From positions 120,001 to 152,000 of the forward strand of contig JALHOH010000001.1 of assembly GCA_022843095.1 (NCBI GenBank): 32,000 nt of DNA, written 5' to 3'. The translations under genes were made by a program, and so were the position numbers. The stretch comes from Candidatus Saccharimonadota bacterium (GTDB taxonomy: Bacteria > Patescibacteriota > Patescibacteriia > 2-12-FULL-60-25). Shown here one piece after another: positions 4,464-30,229 of the stretch; positions within the stretch are counted from its first letter, which is position 1, and each line of letters begins with the position of its first letter. The notes under the pieces were generated by a model. It saw only the letters and a program-made list of their open reading frames with translations. It did not search any database and was not told the origin of the DNA.

Positions 4464-4550
4464 TGGTGGGCGGGGAGAGACTCGAACTCTCATGACCTTG
4501 CGGTCGCTAGCTCCTGAAGCTAGTGCGTCTACCAATTCCGCCACTCGCCC
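4464..4550 (-). tRNA. tRNA-Leu (anticodon CAG), class II with a long variable arm. The CCA end is encoded.
   Basis: The reverse complement reads GGGCGAGTGGCGGAATTGGTAGACGCACTAGCTTCAGGAGCTAGCGACCGCAAGGTCATGAGAGTTCGAGTCTCTCCCCGCCCACCA. The anticodon stem-loop is CTAGC-TTCAGGA-GCTAG and the T-arm is GAGAG-TTCGAGT-CTCTC. It closely resembles E. coli tRNA-Leu(CAG). There is one A:C mismatch at acceptor pair 6:67. Confidence 0.92.
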
Positions 4551-6119: not shown

Positions 6120-6330
6120 ATTTTTAGCAAGATCACGTTTTTCGCTGAGTGTCGAATATGCGTTCGGCCCTTTCGAAAGTCGTGAGGACAACCAAACATC
6201 TGCTCGCACCGAGTGTTTTTTGTTGGCGCATTCCCCTCCTCTTGCGCCTACGCCGGCATTCGACTTCGTTGTCCCAGTATTCAGGAAGAGGACGCACGAC
6301 GCCTCTCCATTCATCCATTTCAATTTACGT

Positions 6331-8313
6331 ATGGAAGCTATGAATCGCACACCCGGTCGCGGGCCGTTTCGGCCACGGGCTGGGTTTCATCGTGGATCGC
6401 ACCCGGCAGGAACAACGCCGACGCCGATCGCACAAGACAAAGACATGTCGCTGAAGCAGGGGTTTGCCAAAGAAGAACGTGGCACCTCCGACAGCCATGA
6501 AGTGAAGCGGCATGGTGGCGTCAACCACCGTGGACGCAAGCGCGGACAACCATTCCGTGCGGCGGACGAGTTTAAGCCACGCATGCACACGTTCAAAAAC
6601 AAGCCGGTCCACAAGACAGGCACGGACGTGGATCTTTTGGCGCCGGGAGCGGATCGGTTGCGTGTGATGGTCGTCGGCGGCAACGAAGAAGTCGGCCGCA
6701 ACATGACGATCATGGAATACGGCAACGACATCATCATCATCGACATGGGACTCCAGTTCCCGGATGAAGACATGCCGGGCGTCGACTACATCATCCCCAA
6801 CATTTCCTACCTGAAGGGCAAGGAAAAAAACATTCGTGGCGTCATCATTACGCACGCCCACTACGACCACATCGGTGGTATTCCACACATCATGCCGCGC
6901 ATCGGCAATCCGCCCATCTTTGGATCGGATTTGACCTGCGGGATTATCCAAAAACGTCAGGAAGATTTTCGTGATTGTCCGCCACTCAACCTGTACGCCG
7001 TCAAATACGATGACGTGCTGCAGCTTGGGGCGTTTAAAGTGGAATTCTTTGGGGTTGCGCACTCCGTTCCGACGTCCATGGGTGTCATTGTGAACACGCC
7101 GTGCGGGATCGTGGTGCACACCGGTGACTTCAAGCTGGAATCTGCGCCAGGAGCCCAATCCATTCAAGAAACGGAGAAACTCATGAAGCTTGGCGAACGC
7201 AACGTCCTGGCACTCATGATCGACTCGACGAACGCCTCCAAACCCGGCCGTCAGCTGACCGAAGGCGACATTCAACGCAACATCAATGAGATCATCCGGA
7301 ACGCCAAGGGCAAGGTGATTATCGCCACGTTCGCGTCCATGATCGCACGTGTCCAGCAGATCATTCGCGCCTGCGAAGAAGAGGGGCGCAAGGTGGCAAT
7401 CGAAGGGTTCTCGATGAAGTCGAACATCCTGATCGCACAGCAACTTGGATACATGGAGATCCAAAAAGGGACGATCATCGACACGAAGGATGTTCACAAG
7501 TATCCACGCGAAAAAGTGGCGATCGTGTGCACCGGCGCACAGGCCCAAGAACGCGCCGCGCTCATGCGCCTCGCGAACCACGAACATCCGTTCCTGTCCA
7601 TCGAACCGGGTGACACGATCGTCTTTTCCTCTTCGGTCATCCCAGGGAACGAACGCTCGGTCCAGCGGCTCAAGGACACGTTGTACCGCGAAGGGGCGGA
7701 CGTCGTGCACTATCAGATGATGGACGTTCACGCCGGTGGTCACGCGCAACAGGAAGACCTGATCGACACGCACAAGATGGTCAAACCGAAGTATCTGATC
7801 CCGATTGAAGGATCGTACTCATTCCTGTGCGAACACCGAAAAGCGGCTCTACGTGGAGGGTTCGAGGATAAGCGCATCATGATCGCCGACAACGGCCAGA
7901 TCATGGAATTCGACCGTGCCGGAAACGGACAGCTGACCAACAAAAAGATCCCAACGGATTACGTGTTCGTTGATGGGCTGGGGGTTGGAAACACGAACCA
8001 AATCGTGCTTCGCGATCGCCAACAGCTTGCCGGCGACGGCGTGGTGATCGTGGTTGCGGTCGTGGATGGCAAGACGGGAAAGCTCCAGGCGCTGCCGGAC
8101 ATTATCTCCCGTGGGTTCATCTACATGAAAGAACACCAAGAACTCATCCATCTTGCCCGCCAAAAAGCGGCCACCATCCTGCGGGACGACGATCCAAAGT
8201 CCGCCGCGCAAGGCCAGTATCTTCGCGATAAACTCCGCGATGACCTGGGCGAATTCCTGTTCGTGAAAACGGAACAGCGCCCCATGATCATCCCGGTCAT
8301 CATCGAAGTGTAA
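6331..8313 (+). CDS. rnj: Ribonuclease J (metallo-beta-lactamase / beta-CASP family) with a basic N-terminal extension of about 115 aa.
   Basis: Motifs seen are LRVMVVGGNEEVGRNMTIMEY, IIIDMG, and ITHAHYDHIGGIPHI (HxHxDH), plus beta-CASP and C-terminal domains. The track ORF begins at 6085, but that region overlaps the promoter and looks non-coding. The first ATG is at 6331 (MEAMNRTPGRGPF), and no SD is visible. Confidence 0.9.
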   Translation: MEAMNRTPGRGPFRPRAGFHRGSHPAGTTPTPIAQDKDMSLKQGFAKEERGTSDSHEVKRHGGVNHRGRKRGQPFRAADEFKPRMHTFKNKPVHKTGTDVDLLAPGADRLRVMVVGGNEEVGRNMTIMEYGNDIIIIDMGLQFPDEDMPGVDYIIPNISYLKGKEKNIRGVIITHAHYDHIGGIPHIMPRIGNPPIFGSDLTCGIIQKRQEDFRDCPPLNLYAVKYDDVLQLGAFKVEFFGVAHSVPTSMGVIVNTPCGIVVHTGDFKLESAPGAQSIQETEKLMKLGERNVLALMIDSTNASKPGRQLTEGDIQRNINEIIRNAKGKVIIATFASMIARVQQIIRACEEEGRKVAIEGFSMKSNILIAQQLGYMEIQKGTIIDTKDVHKYPREKVAIVCTGAQAQERAALMRLANHEHPFLSIEPGDTIVFSSSVIPGNERSVQRLKDTLYREGADVVHYQMMDVHAGGHAQQEDLIDTHKMVKPKYLIPIEGSYSFLCEHRKAALRGGFEDKRIMIADNGQIMEFDRAGNGQLTNKKIPTDYVFVDGLGVGNTNQIVLRDRQQLAGDGVVIVVAVVDGKTGKLQALPDIISRGFIYMKEHQELIHLARQKAATILRDDDPKSAAQGQYLRDKLRDDLGEFLFVKTEQRPMIIPVIIEV

Positions 8314-8858: not shown

Positions 8859-9821
8859 ATGCGGATCGCATTCGTCGGAAAAGGAGGAAGCGGCAAAACA
8901 ACGCTTGCCGCCCGCTTTGCGCGTTGGTGCGGAGATCAAGGGATGCCAACGGTCGCTATGGACGCGGATATCAACCAGCATCTCCTGCACGCCGCAGGAA
9001 TTCCGGAGACCCGTCAACGTCAAACCATCCCTCTGGCCGATCATGCCCACGCGATCAAAACCTTCCTACGCGGCACAAACCCCCGCATCGCCGCTGTGGA
9101 TGACATGATCAAAACAACCCCCCCTGGAACCGGATCCCAACTACTGACCTTTCAGACACAGAACCCACTTTGGGACGCGGCGATTCTGGAAAACGGGGTG
9201 CACTGGGCGCTGGCCGGCGATCTGCATCCGGACGATGTCGGCGTAAAATGCTATCACGCAGTAAACGGCATCGTGGAATTACTTCTGGGACATTTCCACG
9301 ATACTCGGAACGAAGCCGTGATTGTCGACATGACCGCCGGTGCTGATGCCTTTGCTAGCGGACTATTTGGCCGCTTCGACGTCACGGCCGTGGTCGTCGA
9401 ACCAACAGAGGCGTCGCTTTCGGTGCTCCGCCAATATGTCGCGTATGCACACGACTATCCCGTGACCCTAGTCGCCATTGGAAACAAGGTTTCCGACGCA
9501 GATGACCTCACCTTTCTCCAAGCACAGACGACGGCGCAGGGCATCCCCCTGTTGACCCATGTTCCGTTTGCGCGATCCATCAAAAGCGCCTCGCAAGGAC
9601 ACGTGCTTCCCAAAGAATCCTGGGAACCGGAACTGTGTCAGGCGCTCGAAACGATGCGTCAGCACCTCTTGACAATTCCGCGAAATCCGGTGACACTGTA
9701 TTCCCTCGCCTGCGAACTACATCGAAAAAATGCGGCGCGGTGGGCCAATGCAAGTACCGGAACCACACTGGAATCTCAAATTGATCCGCACTTTGACCCT
9801 GTCGCTGCATTCGGCGCATAA
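8859..9821 (+). CDS. P-loop NTPase of the SIMIBI class (CooC/MinD/ParA-like, deviant Walker A), possibly a metallocentre-maturation or metallochaperone ATPase.
   Basis: The 320-aa ORF begins MRIAFVGKGGSGKTTLAARFA (the deviant Walker A KGGxGKT). It also has VIVDMTAG (Walker B-like). It is divergently arranged with the Fur-family gene. Confidence 0.75.
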   Translation: MRIAFVGKGGSGKTTLAARFARWCGDQGMPTVAMDADINQHLLHAAGIPETRQRQTIPLADHAHAIKTFLRGTNPRIAAVDDMIKTTPPGTGSQLLTFQTQNPLWDAAILENGVHWALAGDLHPDDVGVKCYHAVNGIVELLLGHFHDTRNEAVIVDMTAGADAFASGLFGRFDVTAVVVEPTEASLSVLRQYVAYAHDYPVTLVAIGNKVSDADDLTFLQAQTTAQGIPLLTHVPFARSIKSASQGHVLPKESWEPELCQALETMRQHLLTIPRNPVTLYSLACELHRKNAARWANASTGTTLESQIDPHFDPVAAFGA

Positions 9822-9910
9822 CCGGCCTCCGTCTTTCGTTCACACCGAACGAGGGATCAGGCCGTTTAGGCGCACGCACGCGACCGCGGCACACCTGAAG
9901 GAGGTGTTGA

Positions 9911-10603
9911 ATGTCCCTGCTCTTTTCTGACGATGAAGTGAAACGTATCACGAACGGCGCACCGGTGGATGACGAGCTGTTGCTCGACGTGTTGCATCGG
10001 TCGCTGCCGAAGGCGATGGAGATCGTGAAGGCAGCGACCGCGCACGGGACGGCCGAGACTCCGGCGGACACGACCACGGAGGGCCAGATCCTCCGCGCCA
10101 TGGCGTCGACCCCGATCCGCTGCGAGATCGAGCGCATCTACGGCGGCGTTCGGTTCGTCCTGACGCCGAAGCTTCGCCTCTTCGCGCTCCGCAACGGGAG
10201 TGCGCGGGACGCGGAGCCGGCGATTCGGGACGTGATTGGGAGCTATGCCCGCAATGCGGACGGGACCGGGATCACCTTCGACCAGATCCGGATGGAGCTC
10301 CAGGACGGGATGACCATACTGCGGGGAATCACGCTCGAGAGTCAGCACCTCGCCGATGGCGAGATCGCGACGCACGCGCCGGAGAAGATGGAGGACGCGC
10401 CGCGTCTCCAGCTCCTGCGGCTTATGGCGGTCGATCACTATCGCCGCCTGACCGAGCAGAACCTCGGACGCGCCTTCGCGTTTCTGAACTGCCACGCGAC
10501 GAGCGGCGGCAAGCCGACCCCGAAGGTGCGCGAGGCGCTCACCAAGTGGGCGTCGCTCTCGAACCAAGTGCTGAACCAGTCCCCGGTTCGCCGCGACTGC
10601 TGA
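9911..10603 (+). CDS. Hypothetical protein, GC-rich member of a tandem paralog pair (230 aa).
   Basis: The SD GAAGGAGGTG sits 4 nt before the ATG. It has the same length as the downstream ORF and shares blocks with it (MAST, L-x-ALR, I-x-DVI, LL-x-L-x-AVD-x-HRRL-x-E, KP...AL-x-x-WAS). It is followed by its own terminator. Confidence 0.7.
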   Translation: MSLLFSDDEVKRITNGAPVDDELLLDVLHRSLPKAMEIVKAATAHGTAETPADTTTEGQILRAMASTPIRCEIERIYGGVRFVLTPKLRLFALRNGSARDAEPAIRDVIGSYARNADGTGITFDQIRMELQDGMTILRGITLESQHLADGEIATHAPEKMEDAPRLQLLRLMAVDHYRRLTEQNLGRAFAFLNCHATSGGKPTPKVREALTKWASLSNQVLNQSPVRRDC

Positions 10604-10610
10604 AGCGCAT

Positions 10611-10640
10611 CCCCTCTCCCACCTGGGTGAGGGGTTTTTT
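10611..10640 (+). terminator. Intrinsic terminator of the first paralog.
   Basis: CCCCTC-T-CCC ... GGG-T-GAGGGG forms 9 bp with a 1x1 mismatch, followed by TTTTTT. Confidence 0.7.
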
Positions 10641-10742
10641 ATTCCGGAGAGACACCAATTGACGTGTCGTACAATCTGCGTCATGATGAACTCCCTTCGT
10701 CATCGCTTCTGATACGAGGGAACACAGCACAAGGAGTCTGGA

Positions 10743-11435
10743 ATGAGTGGAGACGGACCTTCGTTTGATGATGACACGCCGACCGTGGTGATGCGACGGG
10801 TTCCCGCGAACCCAAATGGTGCACTCTTACTAATCAACGATGCCTTTCCGCTGGCAGCGCTCCTCATTGCAAAAGCCGTGGGAGAAGGATCGGCCACGAT
10901 TCCGGAGGAACGAGAGGCACGTATCCAACTGCACCGCATCATGGCGTCTACCGTGGCGCGCTCCTCGCTCGAGGAGGCGGTGGACGCACGTCTCGTCTGC
11001 GCCCCGAACGCGCTTCACGCCCTTCGTCGAACAGCATCAATCACGGATGCGATCGTGAACGACGTGATCGCACATTCCCATGTAGACACGAAGGGAGAGC
11101 GCTACTCGTTCGAACGACTGAAGAAGGAATATGCGAATGCGGTCGCCGCCCTGCAGGACATCGCCGACCGATGCCAGTCAAAGATGGATCCGGTCATCGC
11201 GACAGAAACCCCGTTCACCTCACCGCTTATTCCAGAACTTCTGGAACTCCTCGCGGTAGATGGGCATCGACGACTCCTGGAACGCACCTTCCGATGTACG
11301 TTCACATCGGTGGATGGACTCGCGATTGGCGTCTCAAAACCCGAGAACCAACGCGCGCTCATTTCCTGGGCGAGCAACCGGCAACCTCCGATCACCTTCC
11401 AAATCCCGGAAGCAATTCGGCCCGGACGTTCGTAA
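10743..11435 (+). CDS. Hypothetical protein, lower-GC member of the tandem paralog pair (230 aa).
   Basis: The SD AAGGAG sits 7 nt before the ATG. It is collinear with ORF 9911..10603 at roughly 25-30% identity by eye. Confidence 0.7.
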   Translation: MSGDGPSFDDDTPTVVMRRVPANPNGALLLINDAFPLAALLIAKAVGEGSATIPEEREARIQLHRIMASTVARSSLEEAVDARLVCAPNALHALRRTASITDAIVNDVIAHSHVDTKGERYSFERLKKEYANAVAALQDIADRCQSKMDPVIATETPFTSPLIPELLELLAVDGHRRLLERTFRCTFTSVDGLAIGVSKPENQRALISWASNRQPPITFQIPEAIRPGRS

Positions 11436-16668: not shown

Positions 16669-17120
16669 GCTCGGGGTGGGCAGATGACCGCTTTGCCAGG
16701 CAACTGGCCGAGAGGAAAGTCCGAGCACCTGCCGACGGGTAACCGTCGGTGTCGCGGAAGCAGCTAACGACTGCCAGGGATACGAAACGAGCGTCACTCG
16801 ACGCCTCCGTCCAACCCTAGGGAAAGTGCCACAGAGACAATACTAGCGGACGGCAACGTCCGTGAAAGGTGAAACGTCGTCCGAGGTCCCGACTCCTTTA
16901 CTGGAGCAACGTTCGGCCACGGACGTCCCCCGTCGGTAACGGCGGGGCGCGGTAAACCCTTCCTGGTGCAAGAGCAAGTCTGACGTGGTCGGGGCAACTC
17001 GGCTACGAAAGAATGGTCGCTCGCTGGAGCGTTGGTGCGAATCAACGCCAAGAGAGATGGTCATCAAACTGGGGATCGACTCCCAGGGAACAAAACTCGG
17101 CTTATCGCTCGCCCAAGCAC
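16669..17120 (+). ncRNA. rnpB: RNase P RNA, bacterial type A (about 450 nt).
   Basis: The P4 strands are GAGGAAAGTCCGAGC (16711-16725) and ACAAAACTCGGCTTATCG (17090-17107). Further conserved blocks are AGTGCCACAGAGA, GTGAAAGGTGAAA and GCGGTAAACCC. P1 pairs GGGTGGGC (16674-16681) with GCTCGCCC (17107-17114). The ends are approximate to within 5 nt. Confidence 0.92.
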
Positions 17121-17216: not shown

Positions 17217-18353
17217 ATGGACGCATTGCCGCCGCTCAAAAAAGAGCAGCAGTTTCTGGTCACTCTCCTAACCCAGGCGCTCGAGGCCGGCATTCTTTTG
17301 CCGGATGAGCTCCTGGCTCGATTCCCGCCTTCCGCCATCATGCAGGAGGTGTTCCGGGATCGACCGGAACGCCGTGCCGACATTCTCGGCATGTGCGTCG
17401 GGGTCAAGCGTGGCACTGCGCTGCGCACGACCCCGGAGACGGCGACCGAGAATCTGGTGACCGCGCTCGAAGTCGAAGACACCTCGGCTGCGGAAATCGT
17501 CGCTGCGGTCGGCGCCGAGGACTACGTCCGCGCGCTTCCCGCCACCGAGGCGTACCACTTGGTGATGACGAAGCCGTGGACCACGGAAGTGGACGCGGAA
17601 CGCAAGCGCATCACCTGCATGCAGGCGCTACTCATCGCCATCATCGAACTGGACCTGCTCGCCGGCCGCGAACAGAACAAGACGCTGAACACGCACCACC
17701 AGCTGGTGAAAGCGATCGGTCACGAACATCTGATGGGAGACGAAATCCCCAAGGATTTGCGCGGCGCCATCCTGAAGCTCGCGCTTGCGCTGGGCGAAAC
17801 GCCGGCCGGGGAGAAGAAGCCGGAACCACTCACGGCGAAGATCCTGATCGGCCACTTGAAGCCGGAGGTGCTGACGAAGTACCTCCCACTCTCGACGCTC
17901 GCCCCGGCGCTGGAGGCGGTGCGCGCGAAGTTCGACTGGAAAGCCCCGGCGCCGCCAGCGGAGCTCTCCGCCCGCGCGACGGATGCCCTCGAGAGCGCTG
18001 TCGCGCCTACGGACGACGATGACCAACCGCGCACGACTGTGCGACCCCCTCCTCCCGGAAAGGACGGCGATGTCGAGGTGGAGGTTTCAGAAGAAATCGG
18101 CGATCCGGGAGAGCCGCTTGCGCCCGAGAAACCAGCAGCATCGCCGTCCGCGCCGAAGACGCCTCCAGCCGAAGAGAAGAGTGGGGGCGGTAGTACGACG
18201 AAGCCGAACGGGGGGAAGGATGCCCGAAGAACCGACGCGCCCCTTCCGGACATCTCCCCGGAAACGCTCGAAGGGGTCCCCGGAGCTGCGCCTCCGATCG
18301 TGTCCAAGGCACCGCCACAAGCGCCGCCTCCCCTTCCATCCGGAAAGAGATAG
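17217..18353 (+). CDS. Hypothetical protein with a helical N-terminal region of about 240 aa and an acidic, Pro/Ala-rich, probably disordered tail of about 135 aa.
   Basis: The 378-aa ORF has a strong SD. The tail reads ...APAPPAELS...DDDDQPRTTVRPPPPGKDGDVEVEVSEE...PEKPAASPSAPKTPPAEEK...APPQAPPPLPSGKR. It is GC-rich, and shadow ORFs occur on both strands. Confidence 0.7.
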   Translation: MDALPPLKKEQQFLVTLLTQALEAGILLPDELLARFPPSAIMQEVFRDRPERRADILGMCVGVKRGTALRTTPETATENLVTALEVEDTSAAEIVAAVGAEDYVRALPATEAYHLVMTKPWTTEVDAERKRITCMQALLIAIIELDLLAGREQNKTLNTHHQLVKAIGHEHLMGDEIPKDLRGAILKLALALGETPAGEKKPEPLTAKILIGHLKPEVLTKYLPLSTLAPALEAVRAKFDWKAPAPPAELSARATDALESAVAPTDDDDQPRTTVRPPPPGKDGDVEVEVSEEIGDPGEPLAPEKPAASPSAPKTPPAEEKSGGGSTTKPNGGKDARRTDAPLPDISPETLEGVPGAAPPIVSKAPPQAPPPLPSGKR

Positions 18354-20078: not shown

Positions 20079-20111
20079 GAAATCAAAACACCGCCCCAGC
20101 AGGAGGGGCGG
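20079..20111 (-). terminator. Intrinsic terminator closing the ORFan island, after gene L.
   Basis: The minus-strand RNA reads CCGCCCC-UCCUGCU-GGGGCGG followed by UGUUUUGAUUU. Confidence 0.7.
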
Positions 20112-20133
20112 CGAACAAGAACACTCTCAACTC

Positions 20134-21096
20134 TTACGGATCATCTCCCCAAATCCATCCAAACTTTCGTTTCGGCAACTCTTGCCGGCAAAACTCTTCC
20201 AATTGTCGGAATGCATCCAAGAGGATCGCATCGCCTCCTGGCTGGTCGATGTGGAATCCGGGGGGGAGAAACATGGCAACGCAGGCCTCCAACAAGTTCA
20301 TCATCCAGGCATATGCATCCCAATCTTCAACCTCTGTATGGATCGGATAGCGTTCAAATAGTTTGAGCCCTCGCCCCAAGAGCGGCTCTTCCCACGCATT
20401 TTGGGCGCAATCACACTCATAGGCATGCCGATCCTCGTAATTCCCCTCTTCGTCGGTAATAATGCCAAGCTTACGATAGAGTGTTTCGATCTTTTGCTCT
20501 GGATGCACCCCGTCCATGAACCACTGTACTTCATCATCCGGATACCCGAAACGATCAAACAATCGCTGCATCAAGAACGCTCCCCACCGTGTGCTCGCTT
20601 TGTAGCTGAACACCCCTTGAAACAAAAAGGTACTGCCGCCTAAAAGCTGCTGTTTAGGCATCTTCGAAAAACGATTCTGCATGTACCGAAGGATATACAC
20701 TTCATCCTCCGGAATCTTCATGTCCCGCAATCGAGTGAGAAAACAGGTGTTGTCAGGCCGAAAAGCCCCTCGCAACGCCCCGTACGAAGACGAATACTCC
20801 TCATCGGGGGATTCACTGAAGTGACCCGGGAGGCCAGCAAGCCAAGCATGCGTCGCAGGCAGTGAAAAATCCCCCTGCCGCATGCGATTAACCCGCTCAT
20901 CAATACGCGACGTATTCGCATCCCGTACATACAGATGCGCCCGAACCTCACCATCTTGCAGAATCCGGTAACAACGGGTCATGTCTCCAAAGAATTCCCC
21001 GTAGATATTTGCGGTGACTTGTTGCTCCTGATTCTCGAATTCCATCACGTCAACTTCGGCAATATTCAACATCTCACCCTTCGTTTCTCCACCCAT
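20134..21096 (-). CDS. Hypothetical soluble protein (island gene L, 320 aa).
   Basis: The ORF has an ATG preceded by GGAGGTGAGGAGG, which is part of the repeated leader. The protein is acidic and Trp-rich (ends ...KRKFGWIWGDDP). I recognise no motif. Confidence 0.7.
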   Translation of the reverse strand: MGGETKGEMLNIAEVDVMEFENQEQQVTANIYGEFFGDMTRCYRILQDGEVRAHLYVRDANTSRIDERVNRMRQGDFSLPATHAWLAGLPGHFSESPDEEYSSSYGALRGAFRPDNTCFLTRLRDMKIPEDEVYILRYMQNRFSKMPKQQLLGGSTFLFQGVFSYKASTRWGAFLMQRLFDRFGYPDDEVQWFMDGVHPEQKIETLYRKLGIITDEEGNYEDRHAYECDCAQNAWEEPLLGRGLKLFERYPIHTEVEDWDAYAWMMNLLEACVAMFLPPGFHIDQPGGDAILLDAFRQLEEFCRQELPKRKFGWIWGDDP

Positions 21097-21104
21097 TTTC
21101 CAAC

Positions 21105-21174
21105 CCTCCTCACCTCCGTGAAGCCGTTCGCTTCGCGGAAGAATCAGAGGCCGTTCCCATGTTTGGGAACGGCG
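21105..21174 (-). repeat. Copy 1 of a 70-nt intergenic module (stop-proximal 10-bp hairpin, second hairpin, then SD). It fills the K|L spacer.
   Basis: On the minus strand it reads CGCCGTTCCCAAACATGGGAACGGCCTCTGATTCTTCCGCGAAGCGAACGGCTTCACGGAGGTGAGGAGG. It matches 22238-22307 at 67/70 positions. Two of the three differences fall in the loop of the first hairpin. Confidence 0.9.
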
Positions 21175-21183
21175 CTACCAGTC

Positions 21184-22233
21184 TCACGTCAGATCCGTTA
21201 CCGTCTCTGGCATGAACGTATTGAACGTCTGATCAGAAAGTACGTGCTTGATGATCAGGGCGGAAAGCACCTCACGTGCTCTCGCGAGATAGGTCTTGTC
21301 TCCCGGCGCGTCTAGGATCGGACCTCCTTCGAGAATACGGACAAGCCGGAACAGTGGACCTAACCCGTGCGCTACCATCAAACGATCATATTCCCGCCTA
21401 AGTCGACCGAAATACGCCCGTCCAGCCACCGGTTGTAAACGTGCAGGATCAATCTGCGGATCCATGAGCACGGCACACGTCGCAACCCATAGGATGGCCG
21501 GATCCATCGCCTCAACCGGATGAGCAAACACCGATCCAAGGTACTTCTGACTCTCCACTTCGTCCCGATATCCCTGTCTGAGCTGTACACACAGCTCCTC
21601 ATCTATGGAGATCTGATACCGATCCAAGAGATCAAGCATGCAGAGCTGCATTACCCTCGCACACTCCCTTGAGGTCACAAGGTGCTCCGCGACGCTTCCC
21701 AGATCAAGACGAAACCCCCCGGGAGAACACAAGAGCTGAATCATGCGCATCACATCCGGAAACGGGAAGACGTGTGCCGTTCTACTGTCCCCCACAGGCG
21801 GTCGCAACAAAAGTTGGAGATAGCATGTGTCAAACGTGGTCCCACGCATGGGGTCGCATGACGCCACCCGTACCTCGATCATCTGGGGAGAGATGCCGTA
21901 CAGCGGCTCTCCGCGCAGAAAACCAATCAGGCGTTCGGACAACCCCCACCCCGATAGCATGCGTGCGCGTCCGGGGGGTGGCGGAAGATCAAACTCATCC
22001 AAGATGGCAAGAAAATCACTGGATCCTTTATACACTAGATACGGATCCACGCGATTTTTTGAACAAGGAATGCGCCCATCAATGAGCACCGGAAAACGGT
22101 CTTTCCCAATGTCTACGACGACCCCCTCCGTACTTAAAGTCAAGCACTCATTTTGATAATCAAGCACTTTTGTAGACCATGCTTGCTTGAACTCAAGATC
22201 GCACGCTGACAGTCTCCTGATTTGATACACCAT
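21184..22233 (-). CDS. Hypothetical soluble protein (island gene K, 349 aa).
   Basis: The ATG lies 4 nt after the repeated SD block. No motif is recognised. The gene is flanked on both sides by the 70-nt module. Confidence 0.7.
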   Translation of the reverse strand: MVYQIRRLSACDLEFKQAWSTKVLDYQNECLTLSTEGVVVDIGKDRFPVLIDGRIPCSKNRVDPYLVYKGSSDFLAILDEFDLPPPPGRARMLSGWGLSERLIGFLRGEPLYGISPQMIEVRVASCDPMRGTTFDTCYLQLLLRPPVGDSRTAHVFPFPDVMRMIQLLCSPGGFRLDLGSVAEHLVTSRECARVMQLCMLDLLDRYQISIDEELCVQLRQGYRDEVESQKYLGSVFAHPVEAMDPAILWVATCAVLMDPQIDPARLQPVAGRAYFGRLRREYDRLMVAHGLGPLFRLVRILEGGPILDAPGDKTYLARAREVLSALIIKHVLSDQTFNTFMPETVTDLT

Positions 22234-22237
22234 GTTT

Positions 22238-22307
22238 CCTCCTCACCTCCGTGAAGCCGTTCGCTTCGCAGAAGAATCAGAGGCCGTTCCCACGATTGGG
22301 AACGGCG
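22238..22307 (-). repeat. Copy 2 of the 70-nt intergenic module. It fills the J|K spacer.
   Basis: On the minus strand it reads CGCCGTTCCCAATCGTGGGAACGGCCTCTGATTCTTCTGCGAAGCGAACGGCTTCACGGAGGTGAGGAGG. It begins 4 nt after the stop of gene J and ends 4 nt before the ATG of gene K. Confidence 0.9.
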
Positions 22308-22311
22308 TAGG

Positions 22312-22872
22312 TTACAACGAGGTCGAGCGCACAATCTTGAAGACTCCGCTGTCTTCAACAATTTCGCGCACGGTTCCTCGCATGTCCTGGACGTGCTTGC
22401 GTACCCGGTACAGGTACACCAGTAGCATCGGCTCGATCCAAAATAGGGTACAGACAGATGCGAACTGTCTGCGGATCGCGCCGTGAGCGTGTTCCTGCTT
22501 GATCAAAAGAAGCAGGAGGAGCACGCCCCAGATCGGTGCGAGCGCATAGAACGCCCCAAGCGCGAAGCTTGCAATGAAGAAGACGATGAACGCCCCCTTC
22601 CGCACCTCGCCTCCATCTCTGACGAGTTCGCCGCGCTGATCCGACAGCCAGAGTTGATATTCCAGCAAATCATGATCAGATGCGAGCTGCGCCGGATGTC
22701 GCACGCGCACTTCGGCTAAGAGCGTTGTCACAGATCGTGCCACGCCCTCTTTACAGGATCGCTGCTCCCACACGGCGATACGTCCCGCAAGACGACACGC
22801 CGTGCGACGACAGGTGGCTCCATGCGCCCAGGCATGCAGCTGATCGACGGTCAGAGGAACCGGAGTTTCCAT
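22312..22872 (-). CDS. Hypothetical membrane protein (island gene J, 186 aa) with a soluble N-terminal domain and two or three C-terminal TM helices.
   Basis: I place the start at ATG 22872 (METPVPLTVDQLHAW), which overlaps the stop of gene I as TAATG. The TM segments are GAFIVFFIASFALGAFYALAPIWGVLLLLLLI and CTLFWIEPMLLVYLY. Confidence 0.65.
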   Translation of the reverse strand: METPVPLTVDQLHAWAHGATCRRTACRLAGRIAVWEQRSCKEGVARSVTTLLAEVRVRHPAQLASDHDLLEYQLWLSDQRGELVRDGGEVRKGAFIVFFIASFALGAFYALAPIWGVLLLLLLIKQEHAHGAIRRQFASVCTLFWIEPMLLVYLYRVRKHVQDMRGTVREIVEDSGVFKIVRSTSL

Positions 22873-23141
22873 TACTCCCCCTCTTTTTTCACAGCCGCGC
22901 CAATGCGCGCCATTTCCTCCAGCACCTCCCCAAACAAGAGAAAGCGCAACAAGAAATACGAGCAGTGGCCGAAGAGGATGGCGCCAAGGACGGCTAGGCC
23001 CTTTTGCACCAACCAATGCGCCTGTTCACGTACGGCTGCGCCATAGCAGGCCCAAGTACCAAACAGGAGCATGCACCCGATCACGACATGAAGTACTGCG
23101 CATTCTCGTGCCGTGATCAATACTTTCTTTACTTCCTCCAT
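22872..23141 (-). CDS. Small membrane protein (island gene I, 89 aa, 2 TM).
   Basis: The start is ATG 23141 (MEEVKKVLITAR), preceded by GGAAGGAGGGTGGG. The TM segments are AVLHVVIGCMLLFGTWACYGA and LAVLGAILFGHCSYFLLRFLLF. It lies 20 nt downstream of the stop of gene H. Confidence 0.6.
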   Translation of the reverse strand: MEEVKKVLITARECAVLHVVIGCMLLFGTWACYGAAVREQAHWLVQKGLAVLGAILFGHCSYFLLRFLLFGEVLEEMARIGAAVKKEGE

Positions 23142-23590: not shown

Positions 23591-23755
23591 TCATACCTCC
23601 CTGTTTGCCCACAGAATCCTCTGAGCAAAAAGGGAGGCAGAACGGAAATTCATCCACTACGATCTGACGAAAGAGGCGGTCGGGTAGAAACCAACGCACC
23701 TCCTTTGGAAGATCGCCCTCTCTCGTTGGAGAGAGCGCAGGATCCGAGAAGATCC

Positions 23756-25575: not shown

Positions 25576-25612
25576 TCTTCCTCCATCCTCCCCACGACAC
25601 CGCGTCCTGGGG

Positions 25613-25647
25613 AAAAATGAGGCCAGGAAAACCGTCCGTTTTCCTGG
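25613..25647 (-). terminator. Intrinsic terminator or attenuator inside the island, in the E|F spacer.
   Basis: The minus-strand RNA reads CCAGGAAAAC-GGACG-GUUUUCCUGG (10 bp) followed by CCUCAUUUUUCC. It starts 4 nt after the stop of gene E. Confidence 0.7.
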
Positions 25648-25651
25648 ACAC

Positions 25652-26536
25652 CTACAGGCTCTTCAATATGGTCGTCATCTGTCCAAAGCCGCTATCCAAG
25701 ATCAAGACTTCTTCTGGATAAAGTTCCCGCGCGTACGCTTCGATCGTGTGAGCAAAGACCTCGTCGTTCGAAAGGGAGAAGTATCGATCTGCGAATTCAC
25801 GCCTCACCAACGCAAACCCCCACATCGCAGCCATGACGGATCTGTCCTCGTCTCGAAGTGCCTGGACAAACCGCTCCAGCGCTTGCTTCCACGGCGTGGA
25901 AGGAATCGTCGTCACCCAGTTCGCGACGTCGTTCACCAAGGTCTGTCGTACAGGCTGCTCGGCAAATGCCGCAAGAACAACATCTTGCGCCTGTTCAACC
26001 GACCAAAGCTGCCGAATGAGCGCCAACGTGGCACGCAAAATCCTTACGGGTTGATGGATAAACGCTCCTTCGAGCGAGACCGTGGTACGCTTCCGCAATT
26101 CGCCACGCAACACGGCCATCTCCTGATGCGTAGGCTCCTGCCATTCAGAGACGAACACAGCGTAATCGAAACGAGGCTGACGGTATTGCACTCGCTTCTC
26201 CTGCCGCGGCATCCTGAGACAAAACGCCGTTGGGCAGGAATACCCATACTCGCGCTCATCCGCAGGCATAGGAGGCACACCATCCATGTACAAACAATCG
26301 CGTCGCGCCTCTCCGGTGAGCACGGATTCGAGAAGCGTCCTATTCACCGCTTCTTCTTGAACCGTTTGTGATCCAAGAAAGGCATACGCCCGATAACAGG
26401 GCAGGTACACGGTGGTGATGCGTCCACCGTTGCGCCCCACCAATCGCCAGGTGAGGTCCACCATGCGTCGCTCCTCGATCAAGGTCCTGTAGACCTCGCG
26501 AGACGCCTTCTCACCAAGAATTTCAAATGTGCTCAT
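25652..26536 (-). CDS. Hypothetical soluble protein (island gene E, 294 aa).
   Basis: I place the start at ATG 26536 (MSTFEILGEKASREVY), preceded by AAGGAGGGG at 4-5 nt. The upstream part of the track ORF covers the structured spacer. No motif is recognised. Confidence 0.65.
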   Translation of the reverse strand: MSTFEILGEKASREVYRTLIEERRMVDLTWRLVGRNGGRITTVYLPCYRAYAFLGSQTVQEEAVNRTLLESVLTGEARRDCLYMDGVPPMPADEREYGYSCPTAFCLRMPRQEKRVQYRQPRFDYAVFVSEWQEPTHQEMAVLRGELRKRTTVSLEGAFIHQPVRILRATLALIRQLWSVEQAQDVVLAAFAEQPVRQTLVNDVANWVTTIPSTPWKQALERFVQALRDEDRSVMAAMWGFALVRREFADRYFSLSNDEVFAHTIEAYARELYPEEVLILDSGFGQMTTILKSL

Positions 26537-26540
26537 CCAT

Positions 26541-26626
26541 CCCCTCCTTGGAAGCCATTCGCTTCCTCTCTCCCCACATCTGCGAATATGGGAAAAGAGG
26601 AAGCCGTCTTCATGGGAAGACGGGAA
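26541..26626 (-). repeat. Degenerate third copy of the hairpin/hairpin/SD module, in the D|E spacer.
   Basis: The minus-strand RNA reads CCGUCUUC-CCAU-GAAGACGG ... GGAAGC-GAAUG-GCUUCC-AAGGAGGGG. The segment CTCCTTGGAAGCCATTCGCTTC matches CTCCGTGAAGCCGTTCGCTTC of copies 1 and 2 at about 19/24 positions. The AGAGG..CCGT..CATG..GGGAA..CGG block is also shared, with an insertion of about 30 nt. Confidence 0.5.
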
Positions 26627-26664
26627 GAAAGAACGAAAGATCATTTCCAAAAAAGAACGATTTG

Positions 26665-27198
26665 TCAACGGATCCGCATCGTTTTGGCACGGTACCGCTG
26701 AAAGCGCACTTCCGCGTATTTATGATTGCGGAACGGACGTTCCATGCAGGTTGTGGGCGACCAAAGCGCAAGACGTCCATCCGAGAGCGGCGTCACCTGT
26801 TCTTCGTCCAGGTTTCCCGCAATCCCAGGCGTTTCTCGCCACCAAGGCCGTGGATCCGGGTCGATCGCCTCCGGCGTCCCGAACACCAAATCCCCATCCA
26901 TCCACAAGATGTCCCACGTCAGCGGATACGAAACCACCTGAAACTGATCCGCCACATACAGCCACCCTGTGACCCCTTCCAGCTCAACCATCATCTCCAT
27001 CGCTTGTCGGACCTGCTCAATCCAACGTCGCAGTGGCGCGTGGTATCGATCGAGATAGGCGCGCAACAGCACCGGCTCCCGGATCAGGGATACCACGGCT
27101 TCCTGATACGCCCGATCTTGCTCCTTCGCCCGGTCAAAGTCCCGGACGACCTGCACGATCTGCTCCTGCAACGCAAGCAGCTCTTGTTTCAGCGTCAT
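26665..27198 (-). CDS. Hypothetical protein (island gene D, 177 aa) with an N-terminal coiled-coil-like helix and a Trp-rich C-terminal domain.
   Basis: I place the start at ATG 27198 (MTLKQELLALQEQIVQVVRDFDRAKEQ), preceded by AAGGAGG at 6-nt spacing. The later segment is GWLYVADQFQVVSYPLTWDILWMDGDLVFG. Confidence 0.6.
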   Translation of the reverse strand: MTLKQELLALQEQIVQVVRDFDRAKEQDRAYQEAVVSLIREPVLLRAYLDRYHAPLRRWIEQVRQAMEMMVELEGVTGWLYVADQFQVVSYPLTWDILWMDGDLVFGTPEAIDPDPRPWWRETPGIAGNLDEEQVTPLSDGRLALWSPTTCMERPFRNHKYAEVRFQRYRAKTMRIR

Positions 27199-27269: not shown

Positions 27270-27295
27270 CAAAAACGCCGAGCAATCACCCGGCG
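27270..27295 (-). terminator. Intrinsic terminator in the C|D spacer.
   Basis: The minus-strand RNA reads CGCCGGG-UGAUUG-CUCGGCG (7 bp including one G:U) followed by UUUUUG. It lies about 125 nt downstream of the stop of gene C. Confidence 0.65.
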
Positions 27296-27902: not shown

Positions 27903-29666
27903 CTACTGCGCGATGACGGGGATCGCCATCGAGGGGCACGAGCGGAGGCCGCACGGGTTGATCGCGTAGATGCGATCGCCCGAGACAGCGCCCGAGGTGC
28001 GGATGTTGAGCACGCCGGGCATGCCCGACATGTAGTTGAGGTCCCACTCGCCCTGGACGTAGCCATGGGCGATGTTGAACTCCACCGAGTACGCACCGGC
28101 CGGAAGCTCGGCGGGCCAGCTGTGCGCGGGCATCGCGCGGATCTGGATCCGCACCGGCCGACCGGGGAACACGTTGATCGTGTTCGCGGTCAGGTCGATG
28201 TCGCGCGCCTGGTTCTCGCCGGCCGGAAACGTATCCTGGCCGTGCGTGGCGCCGTCCCCGTCCACGACGTAGATCCGATTCACGAAGCTCGCATGCCCCG
28301 TGAGCTGGATCCGCAGACGATCGATCACGGCCGGCTCGAGCGTCGAGCGCGCAATGTAGTTCGCCACCACGTACATCGGCGGCCGTCCGATCCAGAAGCC
28401 CGGCGTGACCGATGCGCTCGGATCGATCTCGATCGAGAGCGTGCCACGGTCATGCACCGTGACGAAGTCGACCGGCGCGGCGCTCGCGTTGGCGATGACA
28501 CCCGAGGCGAGGTTGACCGAGGCGGTCAGCTCGCTATCGTCGAAGGCGATGACGTCGCTCGGGCGCGCGATGCCGATCGAAAGCCGATCGCCCCCCGTGA
28601 GCTGTGACACGACAGAATCCATCGTGCAGCGCACCTCGAGCGTTCGCGACGTTCCGCGCGGAATCGACCAGTTCATGGCCGTGATCCGGATTCTGCCCAT
28701 CGAATCAGGCGACTGCGCCAATCCGACTTCAACGTTGCCGTCGAACAACGCACAGCTCGTCGCGACGTGCCACGCGTTGTAAGGAAGGAAGAATCCGTTG
28801 ATGTTGCCCATGGCGGACAACGTCGTCTCACGCACCTGCAGATCGCTCGCCGCGCTCGCGGTGAACACGATCCCAGTGACGGGAGCACGATTCGCCTTCT
28901 TCACCGTCTCCGTCCGCATCGGCGTTGCCGCCAGCGCGACGTTCAGGGTGGGGGCGACGACCGTGAAGGGATTTCCCTCCGCGATCTCGTTCCCCACGAT
29001 CTCCTCCGGCAAAACGAACGTGCCATCGCTGATGCGGCGCACGTCGCTCGGCCGAAAGAAGCGCGCGCCCTGCTCGTCGGTGAAGGAGATGCGATAGCTC
29101 CTCCCCACCAACTCACCGGGGACATCCTCACGGCTCGCGATGTCCATCGTGATGCCGAGGCGGCGCACTTCGCCGCGCCGCATCGCGAACGCATCACGCA
29201 CCTCCCAGAAGACGCTGTTCGTAGTGGGTGCCGAAATGGACGTCGGCCCCATGAGGGTCTGACCGGTTTCGAGGTCCTTCCACTTGATGTCGTGGAAGTA
29301 GACGCTCTCCAGCGACCCGACGAACGACCGCTCCGACGCGTCCGACACGAGTCGGTGACGCGAGGCGCGGATCTCGACGTCGTCGAGCGCCTCCAACCGG
29401 AAGGCGAAGACCACGTTGTCCTGCTGCCCGACCCTAACGTTCCGCGCGGCCGGCCCGTCGTAGTACAGACGAAGCGCGGGCCGCAGTACCGGCGGCGTCG
29501 TGCCTGCCGGCGGCGGAACGTCGCCCGGCACCATGCCCGGCGGAGACGTAATCGGAACCGGCGTTGCGATCGGAAGCGCATCTGCGGAAGCGGCCGAACC
29601 GACCACGACCGGTGAACACCCCGACAAAACCAATGCCGCCACAAAGGCGATCATCAACTTACGCAT
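27903..29666 (-). CDS. Large predicted lipoprotein (island gene B, 587 aa), apparently all-beta and built of repeated modules. It is very GC-rich.
   Basis: I place the start at ATG 29666, giving MRKLMIAFVAALVLSGCSP (signal peptide with the lipobox LSGC). A Pro-rich linker (PITSPPGMVPGDVPPPAGTTPP) follows. Strand-like segments then recur (VVFAFRLEA, LEVRCTMDS, TLSIEIDPS, VRIQIRAMP, YSVEFNIAHG). Sample lines give about 65-72% GC. Confidence 0.7.
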   Translation of the reverse strand: MRKLMIAFVAALVLSGCSPVVVGSAASADALPIATPVPITSPPGMVPGDVPPPAGTTPPVLRPALRLYYDGPAARNVRVGQQDNVVFAFRLEALDDVEIRASRHRLVSDASERSFVGSLESVYFHDIKWKDLETGQTLMGPTSISAPTTNSVFWEVRDAFAMRRGEVRRLGITMDIASREDVPGELVGRSYRISFTDEQGARFFRPSDVRRISDGTFVLPEEIVGNEIAEGNPFTVVAPTLNVALAATPMRTETVKKANRAPVTGIVFTASAASDLQVRETTLSAMGNINGFFLPYNAWHVATSCALFDGNVEVGLAQSPDSMGRIRITAMNWSIPRGTSRTLEVRCTMDSVVSQLTGGDRLSIGIARPSDVIAFDDSELTASVNLASGVIANASAAPVDFVTVHDRGTLSIEIDPSASVTPGFWIGRPPMYVVANYIARSTLEPAVIDRLRIQLTGHASFVNRIYVVDGDGATHGQDTFPAGENQARDIDLTANTINVFPGRPVRIQIRAMPAHSWPAELPAGAYSVEFNIAHGYVQGEWDLNYMSGMPGVLNIRTSGAVSGDRIYAINPCGLRSCPSMAIPVIAQ

Positions 29667-29770
29667 TTTCAAAGTCCTTTCTGGAGCACCTGCTCCAACG
29701 AAGGTTCGGATGCGCAACACATCCGAGGCTTTGTTGGAGCCATCTCTTCGCAGAACACAGAGAGATGAAC

Positions 29771-30229
29771 TCAGTGAAGACATCTGGCCGACGGAATCGT
29801 CAATGGAATCTCCATGTTCACATTGATCAACTCACCCCGACAGAGGCCAGACAGTCGAGAACGATCGGATGAGCCAACCTGGGCAAAAATCCGCATTGAA
29901 GCGAGCGAACGCCCTTCAAAAGAAGACCATTGCTCACTGCCATATCGAGGTTGACGTCCTTGAGTGCCTTCGCAAACAACATTCGCATGGACGAACCCCA
30001 TCCAACGCTGATCCATACGGAGTTGCAACCGAGATCCGCGAGAATCATGCCTCTCCCCAATTGGACCAAAAGCGAACACCCTCCATCCCGACGGACAATA
30101 CGAGAGGTCCGCCCGACTAACATCGATGCAGAGGTGGCCTTCCGGACACGAAGGAAGTGGTTCGCTCCCCCGGCACCCAGCCACCACCATCACCAATACA
30201 GCCAGAAGCAGAGTGAACAAGCTCTTCAT
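29771..30229 (-). CDS. Small Cys-containing lipoprotein (island gene A, 152 aa), the first gene of the island.
   Basis: The N-terminus is MKSLFTLLLAVLVMVVAGC (signal peptide with the lipobox VAGC). Six further Cys follow. The SD AAGGAG sits 8 nt before the ATG. Confidence 0.65.
   Translation of the reverse strand: MKSLFTLLLAVLVMVVAGCRGSEPLPSCPEGHLCIDVSRADLSYCPSGWRVFAFGPIGERHDSRGSRLQLRMDQRWMGFVHANVVCEGTQGRQPRYGSEQWSSFEGRSLASMRIFAQVGSSDRSRLSGLCRGELINVNMEIPLTIPSARCLH

Follow-up and report, generated by a model that had tools for sequence, protein, structure and literature searches.

Organization of the locus and the repeated spacer module

The stretch of DNA analysed here, called the window throughout, is 32 kb long and belongs to a contig (at least 683 kb) from a Candidatus Saccharimonadota bacterium (JALHOH010000001.1), and statements about the source genome refer to these 32 kb. 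From ~27.9 down to 20.1 kb its minus strand carries an operon-like series of ten co-directional open reading frames (ORFs) that ends with the genes J, K and L, and a 70-nt non-coding module occurs on both sides of K. Read on the minus strand, which is the coding strand of J, K and L, copy 1 of the module occupies 22238..22307 in the J|K spacer and copy 2 occupies 21105..21174 in the K|L spacer. In the direct-repeat comparison of the window the copies (repeat D1) match at 67 of 70 positions (96% identity) with a spacing of 1133 nt, in agreement with an earlier note on this DNA, which had also seen that the module flanks K and supplies the ribosome-binding sites of both K and L. That note had equated the module with the complete spacers; the spacers in fact measure 78 nt (J|K) and 87 nt (K|L), of which the module takes up 70 nt each.

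The repeat is sharply delimited. Either half is present exactly two times within the 32 kb, with none expected (100 shuffles), and immediately outside the 70 nt, on both sides, identity is at background level. The 3' limit is the tandem Shine-Dalgarno (SD) sequence GGAGGUGAGGAGG (22238..22250 and 21105..21117, minus strand), so that the earlier observation of a repeat ending exactly at the SD holds; the start codons follow 4 nt further on for K (ATG 22233) and 8 nt further on for L (ATG 21096). Three substitutions separate the copies. Two of them fall inside the 4-nt loop of the first of two predicted hairpins, as had been noticed, and the third (U/C at 22270/21137) faces a G and gives U-G in one copy and C-G in the other, thereby also keeping the pairing.

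K (349 aa, 21184..22233, minus strand) and L (320 aa, 20134..21096, minus strand) are orphans: a search of 5.8 billion protein clusters returns for each of them only itself, as does, for K, a phmmer search of 1.84 billion representatives, and BLASTP detects no similarity between them, which confirms that their coding sequences are unrelated. None of the ten operon ORFs, K and L included, matches a Pfam, NCBIfam, PADLOC or PHROG family (28 ORFs of the window were scanned against Pfam, eight of the operon against NCBIfam and PADLOC, and ten against PHROGs), and the ten show no similarity to one another. These general library scans gave no match to a recombinase, transposase or reverse transcriptase family among the ORFs covered. 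AlphaFold models of K and L made without an alignment are unusable, with predicted local distance difference test scores (pLDDT) of 36.8 and 37.9. J (22312..22872, minus strand) encodes ~186 aa when read from ATG 22872 and has a hydrophobic C-terminal stretch with the look of a membrane-spanning segment; its most likely start is this ATG, which overlaps the stop codon of an 89-aa gene at 22872-23141 (TAATG), rather than TTG 23016. The G+C content at third codon positions (GC3) is 0.57 for K, 0.56 for L and 0.65 for J. Since codon usage and GC3 of K are not distinct from those of L, nothing in its composition marks K by itself as foreign.

A promoter scan found no sigma-70-like promoter in or near the module, and the canonical intrinsic terminator of the operon stands only after L (20089..20113, minus strand; a 9-bp GC stem followed by UUUUGAUUUC, -19.0 kcal/mol); J, K and L are therefore probably co-transcribed. 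A promoter-like TTGACA-17-AATGAT lies at 26640-26668 on the minus strand, overlapping the stop codon of a 189-aa gene, and the transcript may therefore span from ~26.6 kb, where the gene starting at 26536 lies, to the terminator after L. The window is chromosomal; among its genes are those for RNase J, TrpRS, RNase P RNA and tRNA-Leu. The neighbouring DUF2207 protein has relatives at no more than 49% identity, the named ones being Patescibacteria, which makes a CPR-like organism probable.

Predicted structure of the module

The module is predicted to fold into two domains. Hairpin 1, GCCGUUCCCA-N4-UGGGAACGGC on the minus strand, has a perfect 10-bp stem in both copies (-18.0 kcal/mol), with loop AUCG in copy 1 (22283..22306) and loop AACA on the identical stem in copy 2 (21150..21173). 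The earlier description of a perfect 10-bp hairpin was accurate, and its distance from the upstream stop codon, then put at 4-9 nt, is 5 nt after J and 10 nt after K. Hairpin 1 shares a GC-rich stem-loop with intrinsic terminators and lacks a proper U-tract directly after the stem: its tail, CUCUGAUUCUUC, has four U in the first 8 nt, interrupted, and the terminator scan, which did flag 20089-20113 (after L) and 27276-27295, left it unflagged.

Domain 2 is a three-tier hairpin recovered as both the minimum free energy and the centroid structure, at 22239..22282 in copy 1 (-20.6 kcal/mol) and at 21106..21149 in copy 2 (-22.8 kcal/mol), where C-G replaces U-G at 21137. Its tiers of 4, 6 and 5 bp, separated by internal loops, are CUCU:GGAG, CUUCYG:CGGAGG (the first strand being CUUCUG in copy 1) and the apical GAAGC-GAACG-GCUUC, 15 pairs in all. 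The second hairpin with a GAACG loop that had been described is thus present, and the predicted fold is larger, extending to both GGAGG boxes; the SD does come right after that apical hairpin and before the start codon, with the ATG standing 4 or 8 nt beyond it. Because CUCU and CUUCYG pair with both GGAGG boxes, the SD is predicted to be masked, with a probability of being unpaired of 0.00 for K and 0.12 for L. By predicted accessibility these two SDs rank among the most masked starts of the window, in a comparison with housekeeping genes that is weakened by uncertain start codons and that included the ORFs starting at 9911 and 10743. The latter two (9911-10603 and 10743-11435, plus strand) are probably not genes, since both match the Pfam entry 'NucS shadow ORF', and the real genes therefore probably lie on the opposite strand (e.g. 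9866-10684, minus).

The whole spacers fold better than their shuffled counterparts (z -4.5 and -3.6), and all 25 predicted pairs are present in both copies, as two substitutions fall in the loop and the third exchanges U-G for C-G. Compensatory changes, which had been suggested as a check on the two stems, are absent between the two copies: no pair is changed on both sides, and one is changed on one side. On inspection, no other pairing by which the SD could become free was obvious. The strand that masks the SD lies more than 25 nt past the upstream stop codon, which places it out of direct reach of a terminating ribosome. A cmscan search of 17-27 kb against Rfam returned no family at E <= 1 for the module, and over the whole window only RNase P RNA and tRNA reached the gathering score.

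Further copies and the other spacers of the operon

A pattern search for hairpin 2 followed by the SD gave three matches in the window, with none expected. The third match is a partial copy at 26543..26565 on the minus strand, in which hairpin 2 (GAAGC-GAAUG-GCUUC) is followed by CAA and GGAGG; it reads GAAGCGAAUGGCUUC-CAA-GGAGGGGAUGG and ends 6 nt before ATG 26536. Its local alignment to the module has z = 7.4, and none of 500 shuffles did as well. A covariance model (R1) built from the two copies scores them at 102.8 bits (copy 1) and 103.8 bits (copy 2) and, run with filters off, finds no further full copy in the window, nor any in the loci of relatives described below. The covariance search that the earlier note had proposed therefore adds no full copy, and the partial one came from the pattern.

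Three other spacers of the operon show a related organization. At 25576..25651 (minus strand) a spacer of different sequence is predicted to have the same two-domain layout, with a 10-bp hairpin and then CCUC...UUUUUCCCCA:UGGGGAGGA...GAGG. At 26537..26664 (minus strand) the predicted fold has a hairpin, then a CU-rich strand paired with GGGGAGAGAGGAAG, and then the partial module copy. At 23591..23755 (minus strand) the last hairpin masks the SD GGGAGG by CCUCCC (probability unpaired 0.00). The layout common to three spacers is a strong hairpin after the stop codon, followed by a CCUC or CU-rich strand paired with purines at or near the SD around a small apical hairpin.

Searches of wider collections yielded no convincing copy. 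In the genome collection, from which the source genome is absent or masked, the hairpin 1 pattern gave 25 matches, each a generic hairpin of terminator-like form in an unrelated taxon; in none of them is the remainder of the module present. A strict pattern had no match in the metagenomes; a looser one (hairpin 2 plus GGAGG) had 22, most of them within coding sequence, which look like chance. Two metagenomic matches (L027 1387-1412 in PPFU01227836.1 and L034 1111-1136 in PPFU01167424.1) place GAAGCGAACGGCUUCACAGGAGGUGA directly before an ATG and agree with hairpin 2 plus the SD at 25 of 26 nt. We do not count them as true copies, as they share no protein similarity with the window and, despite the ribosome-site context, are probably due to chance after selection by pattern. 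Viral collections had no match to the DNA pattern or to protein K. Separately, six loci of Arthrobacter sp. NPDC093125 (L006, L009, L010, L013, L018 and L024) carry a longer palindromic repeat around the 10-bp stem of hairpin 1, cccaacu-agguagcag...GCCGTTCCCAGCGCTGGGAACGGC...cugcuaccu-aguuggg, with a look of the repetitive extragenic palindromic (REP) type.

The same locus in relatives

In the window the operon lies within a hypervariable region flanked by pfkB and a DUF2207 gene. Eight loci from other assemblies keep the order pfkB / [cluster] / DUF2207 / (RNase P RNA) / FecR / CHASE2 cyclase / TrpRS / RNase J. Between pfkB and DUF2207 these loci hold from no gene (L056) or one (L052) up to ~12 (L053), and none of the ten operon genes of the window, J included, has a homologue there. 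Since the number of genes varies and the cluster proteins of the window mostly lack homologues, the pfkB-DUF2207 locus is a hot spot of gene turnover.

Repeated spacers of their own flank a gene in three of these loci. L049 has a 69-nt module, 97% identical between copies, after its genes B and C and so on either side of C, with a third, partial copy after gene D. In L053 a 33-aa ORF is flanked on each side by a 59-nt spacer repeat (83%). In L048, ~41-nt direct repeats with an internal palindrome (9379-9419 and 9852-9900) surround a minus-strand gene for a DUF559 protein (Vsr-like endonuclease) just upstream of DUF2207. Moreover, in L049 a 98-nt repeat (949-1046 and 1900-1997; 89%) covers the SD, the start codon and the lipoprotein signal peptide of the adjacent genes B and C, the mature parts of which are unrelated; this looks like modular gene construction. 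SD-masking hairpins are present in the relatives' spacers too.

A hairpin of the form GGGUCGC-NN-AUC-CCNCU-GAU-NN-GCA, with an anti-SD-like loop (CCYCU), follows stop codons within the pfkB-DUF2207 clusters of four loci. In an alignment of seven copies from three loci it is 100% paired with two compensatory pairs, and none of 500 shuffles did as well. The covariance model made from it (R2) finds nine copies in the four loci, all within the clusters: L049 815-844, 1809-1838, 3313-3342 and 3612-3641; L053 5643-5672, 6706-6736 and 7500-7529; L051 2157-2186; and L048 5687-5718. The hairpin has no Rfam match. A second conserved spacer element, consisting of CGCYUCA, a variable hairpin and UAGGGCGAA, and often preceded by a strong variable hairpin, was seen at L049 1840-1880, 3344-3384, 3670-3714 and about 875-930, at L053 about 6150-6200 and 6750-6800, and at L051 about 2215-2265 and 2810-2860.

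Homology between the module of the window and these spacers was considered and rejected: a MAFFT alignment looked plausible, but permutation p ranged from 0.07 to 1 and R2 was empty in the window. An 8-mer, CCUCUGAU, common to the module and the loop of the relatives' hairpin was taken as coincidence.

Some further features of the region may be recorded here. The bacterial class A RNase P RNA of the window (16672-17120, plus strand; 163.7 bits) is located between the gene with the FecR domain and the ORF at 17217, and is found at the equivalent position in L049, L051 and L053. A tRNA-Leu (CAG) gene is located at 4464-4550 (minus strand). Upstream of the operon stand two lipoprotein-like genes (27903-29783 and 29771-30229, minus strand), with signal peptides ending in cysteine. 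The first is markedly GC-richer (GC 0.647, GC3 0.83), and its 626-aa product is the only protein of the window's cluster with homologues in the relatives' loci. In L056 (4786-4970), pfkB and DUF2207 are adjacent and divergent with no cluster between them, and their spacer holds a long inverted repeat of TAGCTNGTAGCTGGTA-like units.

Interpretation of the module

The findings presented here lead us to a reading to which we give about an even chance: as a portable spacer between cistrons, duplicated recently, the module would combine an mRNA hairpin or leaky terminator with a self-masked ribosome-binding site. Hairpin 1 would form right behind the stop codon of the upstream gene and would hinder decay from the 3' end, serve as a leaky terminator, or do both, so that upstream cistrons could outlast or outnumber downstream ones. 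The CU-rich strand and the tandem GGAGG boxes, closing around the apical hairpin, would hide the ribosome-binding site of the following gene until processing, ribosome traffic or standby binding opens it. As the same 70 nt precede both genes, K and L would receive the same initiation region and the same attenuation. In addition, 67/70 identity and sharp edges next to unrelated orphan genes indicate a copying event much younger than the genes; it could have proceeded by unequal or illegitimate recombination, by cassette gain or by gene conversion. The residue of an old tandem gene duplication is excluded, since the spacer is 96% identical while the orphans it flanks are mutually unrelated. The sharp edges and the comparable cases in L049, L053 and L048 speak for modular recombination, with spacers that accompany genes or bracket them.

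Several points weigh against this reading. Selection on the fold is not demonstrated, as there are only two full copies, no compensatory changes, and a probability of 0.074 that three random substitutions would all be structure-neutral by chance. Hairpin 1 taken alone is generic, the identical stem being terminator-like in 25 unrelated genomes, and domain 2, at -21 to -23 kcal/mol, might do no more than shut off K and L. Copies were counted in 32 kb only, and a dispersed repeat family elsewhere in the source genome is possible. The link to the relatives is one of locus and layout, not of homology, because sequence similarity is non-significant and the model of their hairpin finds nothing in the window at E <= 1. 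Finally, what the sequences show is the repeat, its fold and SD masking as predicted from thermodynamics, the partial third copy, the layout common to the operon's other spacers and the repeated spacers at this locus in relatives; from these we infer co-transcription, the effects on stability or termination and the opening of the SD.

A neutral by-product, which we consider unlikely though deserving of some credit, would be a recent local duplication or gene-conversion tract whose hairpins and SD are generic operon furniture, the repeat carrying an ordinary ribosome-binding site only. The points just listed on covariation, on chance neutrality and on the common stem of hairpin 1 speak for it, as does the want of an Rfam match and of copies elsewhere in the collections scanned. 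It explains less readily why the edges of the repeat are the limits of the functional spacer on both sides and do not run into coding sequence, why two of three changes fall in one 4-nt loop (P = 0.009), why a partial third copy sits at another start codon and why the same phenomenon recurs at the same locus in relatives. The pattern of substitutions is suggestive, not proof, of selection on the fold.

More speculatively, and with a rather low probability in our judgement, the spacers at this locus may do double duty, both as expression punctuation and as homology or recombination linkers by which orphan genes are captured, duplicated and swapped. The locus would then be an integrase-free cassette platform for gene turnover, and the 70-mers around K one fresh insertion scar.

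At the level of DNA alone, the module or its palindrome could mark a cassette boundary, that is, a recombination site or homology linker for the insertion, excision or swapping of orphan genes, a proposal that we regard as improbable; in its working it would resemble an integron cassette array or phage linker sequences, but with no integrase nearby. K as an inserted cassette was one of the two readings of the earlier note, and part of it stands: direct repeats with sharp edges bracket K, the locus is hypervariable, with 0-12 unrelated genes in relatives, genome-specific repeated spacers flank genes in L049, L053 and L048, and genes B and C of L049 join conserved ends to unrelated middles. The similar GC3 of K and L speaks mildly against K as the sole insert and for two module-plus-gene units. 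Further points weigh against the proposal: the two ends of the module lack the mutual complementarity of the R''/R' boxes of attC, the 5' end CGCCGTTCCC not matching the reverse-complemented 3' end CCTCCTCACC, a reading of the 70 nt by eye, with no pattern search, brought up no GTTRRRY core, the general family scans of window ORFs gave no recombinase match, and there are two full copies only, not an array.

A translational relay has a slim chance of being correct. Ribosomes leaving J or K would translate a mini-ORF, melting both domains, and would be handed on to K or L where it ends, between the SD boxes. Copy 1 holds a possible 16-codon frame (GUG...UGA; 22243..22293, minus strand) from the loop of hairpin 1 to a UGA between the SD boxes, and copy 2 its equivalent beginning with AUG (21110-21160, minus strand), which reaches 25 codons when read from GUG 21187 overlapping the K stop codon (GUGA). 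The anatomy is attractive: the peptide is identical in both copies, the substitutions being GUG/AUG at the start, a synonymous UCU/UCC and one change upstream of the start, and similar ORFs end at or next to the starts of genes 26536 (AUGA) and 23590 (UGAAUG). The shuffled-spacer test is non-significant, and for this reason the relay was set aside: such ORFs occur in 6-62% of shuffled spacers, and their presence in four of six spacers has P = 0.04-0.08, or 0.12-0.14 if the two copies count once. The mini-ORF start also has no SD of its own and lies inside a -18 kcal/mol hairpin.

Very unlikely, in our view, is a specific riboregulator, meaning a leader that responds to a ligand, a protein, a small RNA or temperature and co-regulates K and L. 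The other reading of the earlier note, a conserved cis-regulatory leader or processing element, keeps partial support and gains from the fold that surpasses shuffles, from the predicted masking of the SD and from the element standing upstream of K, L and, in part, of gene 26536; three GGA motifs in the 3' strand would also suit a regulator. The riboregulator loses in that no family is matched in Rfam even at E <= 1, no obvious rearrangement frees the SD, the element is not conserved in relatives, and domain 2 appears far more stable than characterised RNA thermometers. Measured against the grounds for refutation given in the note, its leader reading is weak, and a sequence-specific, conserved regulatory RNA family is not supported, given that covariation is lacking, that Rfam and the genome, metagenome and viral collections yielded no convincing copy, and that the substitutions could be neutral by chance.

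Least probable of all is a dispersed repeat of the REP or miniature inverted-repeat transposable element (MITE) type, two copies of which would have fallen in this operon: the module is a palindrome-containing intergenic repeat and the 32 kb are a small part of the contig, but its full and partial copies all lie in one operon and in no other spacer of the window, terminal inverted repeats are absent, the 25 genome matches to hairpin 1 come without the rest of the module, and in relatives the corresponding repeats stay within this one locus over 15-22 kb of sequence. The portable, self-masked spacer is more likely than a specific riboregulator, than a recombination site of the attC kind or than a REP- or MITE-type repeat.

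If it works as proposed, that spacer is a compact natural part, a stabiliser hairpin joined to a self-masked tandem SD, that gives one kind of start to unrelated genes. Should it prove a neutral duplication and no more, it would rank as a minor curiosity. To our knowledge, very little is known about the gene-expression signals of this little-studied, uncultured lineage. The wider pattern outweighs the single repeat, which is probably a young duplication of a functional spacer: at a syntenic, lineage-wide hot spot orphan genes come and go among genome-specific repeated spacers, and unrelated proteins have common leaders. This pattern provides a concrete setting in which the gain of orphan genes and their integration into operons can be studied.

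Comparison with known systems

The module seems to belong to no described regulatory RNA family, and it lacks defining features of several of the classes with which it was compared: it has no proper U-tract of the canonical terminator kind, it differs from attC sites, MITEs and the repeats of diversity-generating retroelements, it matches no Rfam family and it falls outside the hairpin family of the relatives. Integron attC cassettes are similar in that an ORF lies between structured repeats of 60-140 nt at a locus whose content differs among relatives; the organization R''/L''...L'/R' with a GTTRRRY core and intI is not seen here (the core judged by eye only), the two ends of the module do not pair with each other, extrahelical bases and an integrase match are lacking, and no array extends beyond two copies. 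As for MITEs, CGCCGTTCCC and the reverse-complemented 3' end CCTCCTCACC are unrelated and the flanks differ. The template and variable repeats of diversity-generating retroelements find no counterpart either, the copies being intergenic, with one C/U difference and no reverse transcriptase match. TIGR-Tas arrays, considered from the literature, are unrelated to the layout of the module. The hairpin of the relatives shares with it the pfkB-DUF2207 locus, the position after stop codons and repetition within a genome; it has no covariance-model match in the window, and the modules are not significantly similar.

In Borrelia, an upstream homology box has reportedly been attributed to recombination in a fast-evolving gene set. 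The module, and the repeat of L049 with its signal peptide, likewise join a near-identical non-coding upstream region to different coding sequences. The Borrelia box precedes ospE, ospF and elp genes (Marconi et al. 1996, J Bacteriol 178:5615, as given in the reference list of PMC10016077). Unlike that box, which is a promoter region on multicopy plasmids and prophages, the module is a spacer within one chromosomal operon and carries a hairpin after the stop codon.

Closer likenesses are found among intercistronic hairpins. REPs are short, imperfect palindromes, of which a genome holds tens to hundreds; they have a head specific to the family and RAYT transposases. Like enterobacterial REPs and bacterial interspersed mosaic elements (BIMEs), the module places a GC-rich palindrome between cistrons near the upstream stop codon, at more than one spacer, and would be expected to be co-transcribed, to stop 3'-to-5' decay and to govern the relative amounts of upstream and downstream products. 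Structured mRNAs containing REPs are mentioned as targets of exonucleases in PMC12320835. In contrast to REP/BIME elements, the stem of the module is perfect and sits in a 70-nt composite that includes a second domain and a ribosome-binding site, no transposase is matched, and the two full copies lie in one operon, to which all copies in the window are confined; the genome scan found no locus that carries the module.

The RNase III signals of phage T7 are related structured elements of ~60-70 nt between unrelated genes, with stems interrupted by internal loops, and cleavage there leaves a hairpin that protects the 3' end and can expose the start that follows. The module resembles them, in shape alone, as a structured element just upstream of the next ribosome-binding site; it differs in bearing no sequence relation to them, in a domain 2 of only 15 bp in three tiers, and in belonging to an operon without phage family matches. 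In RNA thermometers (ROSE, fourU) and in structure-based translational coupling, a pyrimidine strand pairs with the SD and initiation needs the helix to open. The masked SD of the module (probability unpaired 0.00 and 0.12) recalls such sequestering hairpins. An RNA thermometer is unlikely given the stability of the helix, which appears much greater than that of characterised thermometers, and no Rfam thermometer is matched. Taken together, and by analogy, the module may best be likened to an intercistronic hairpin of the REP or T7 type combined with an SD-sequestering leader.

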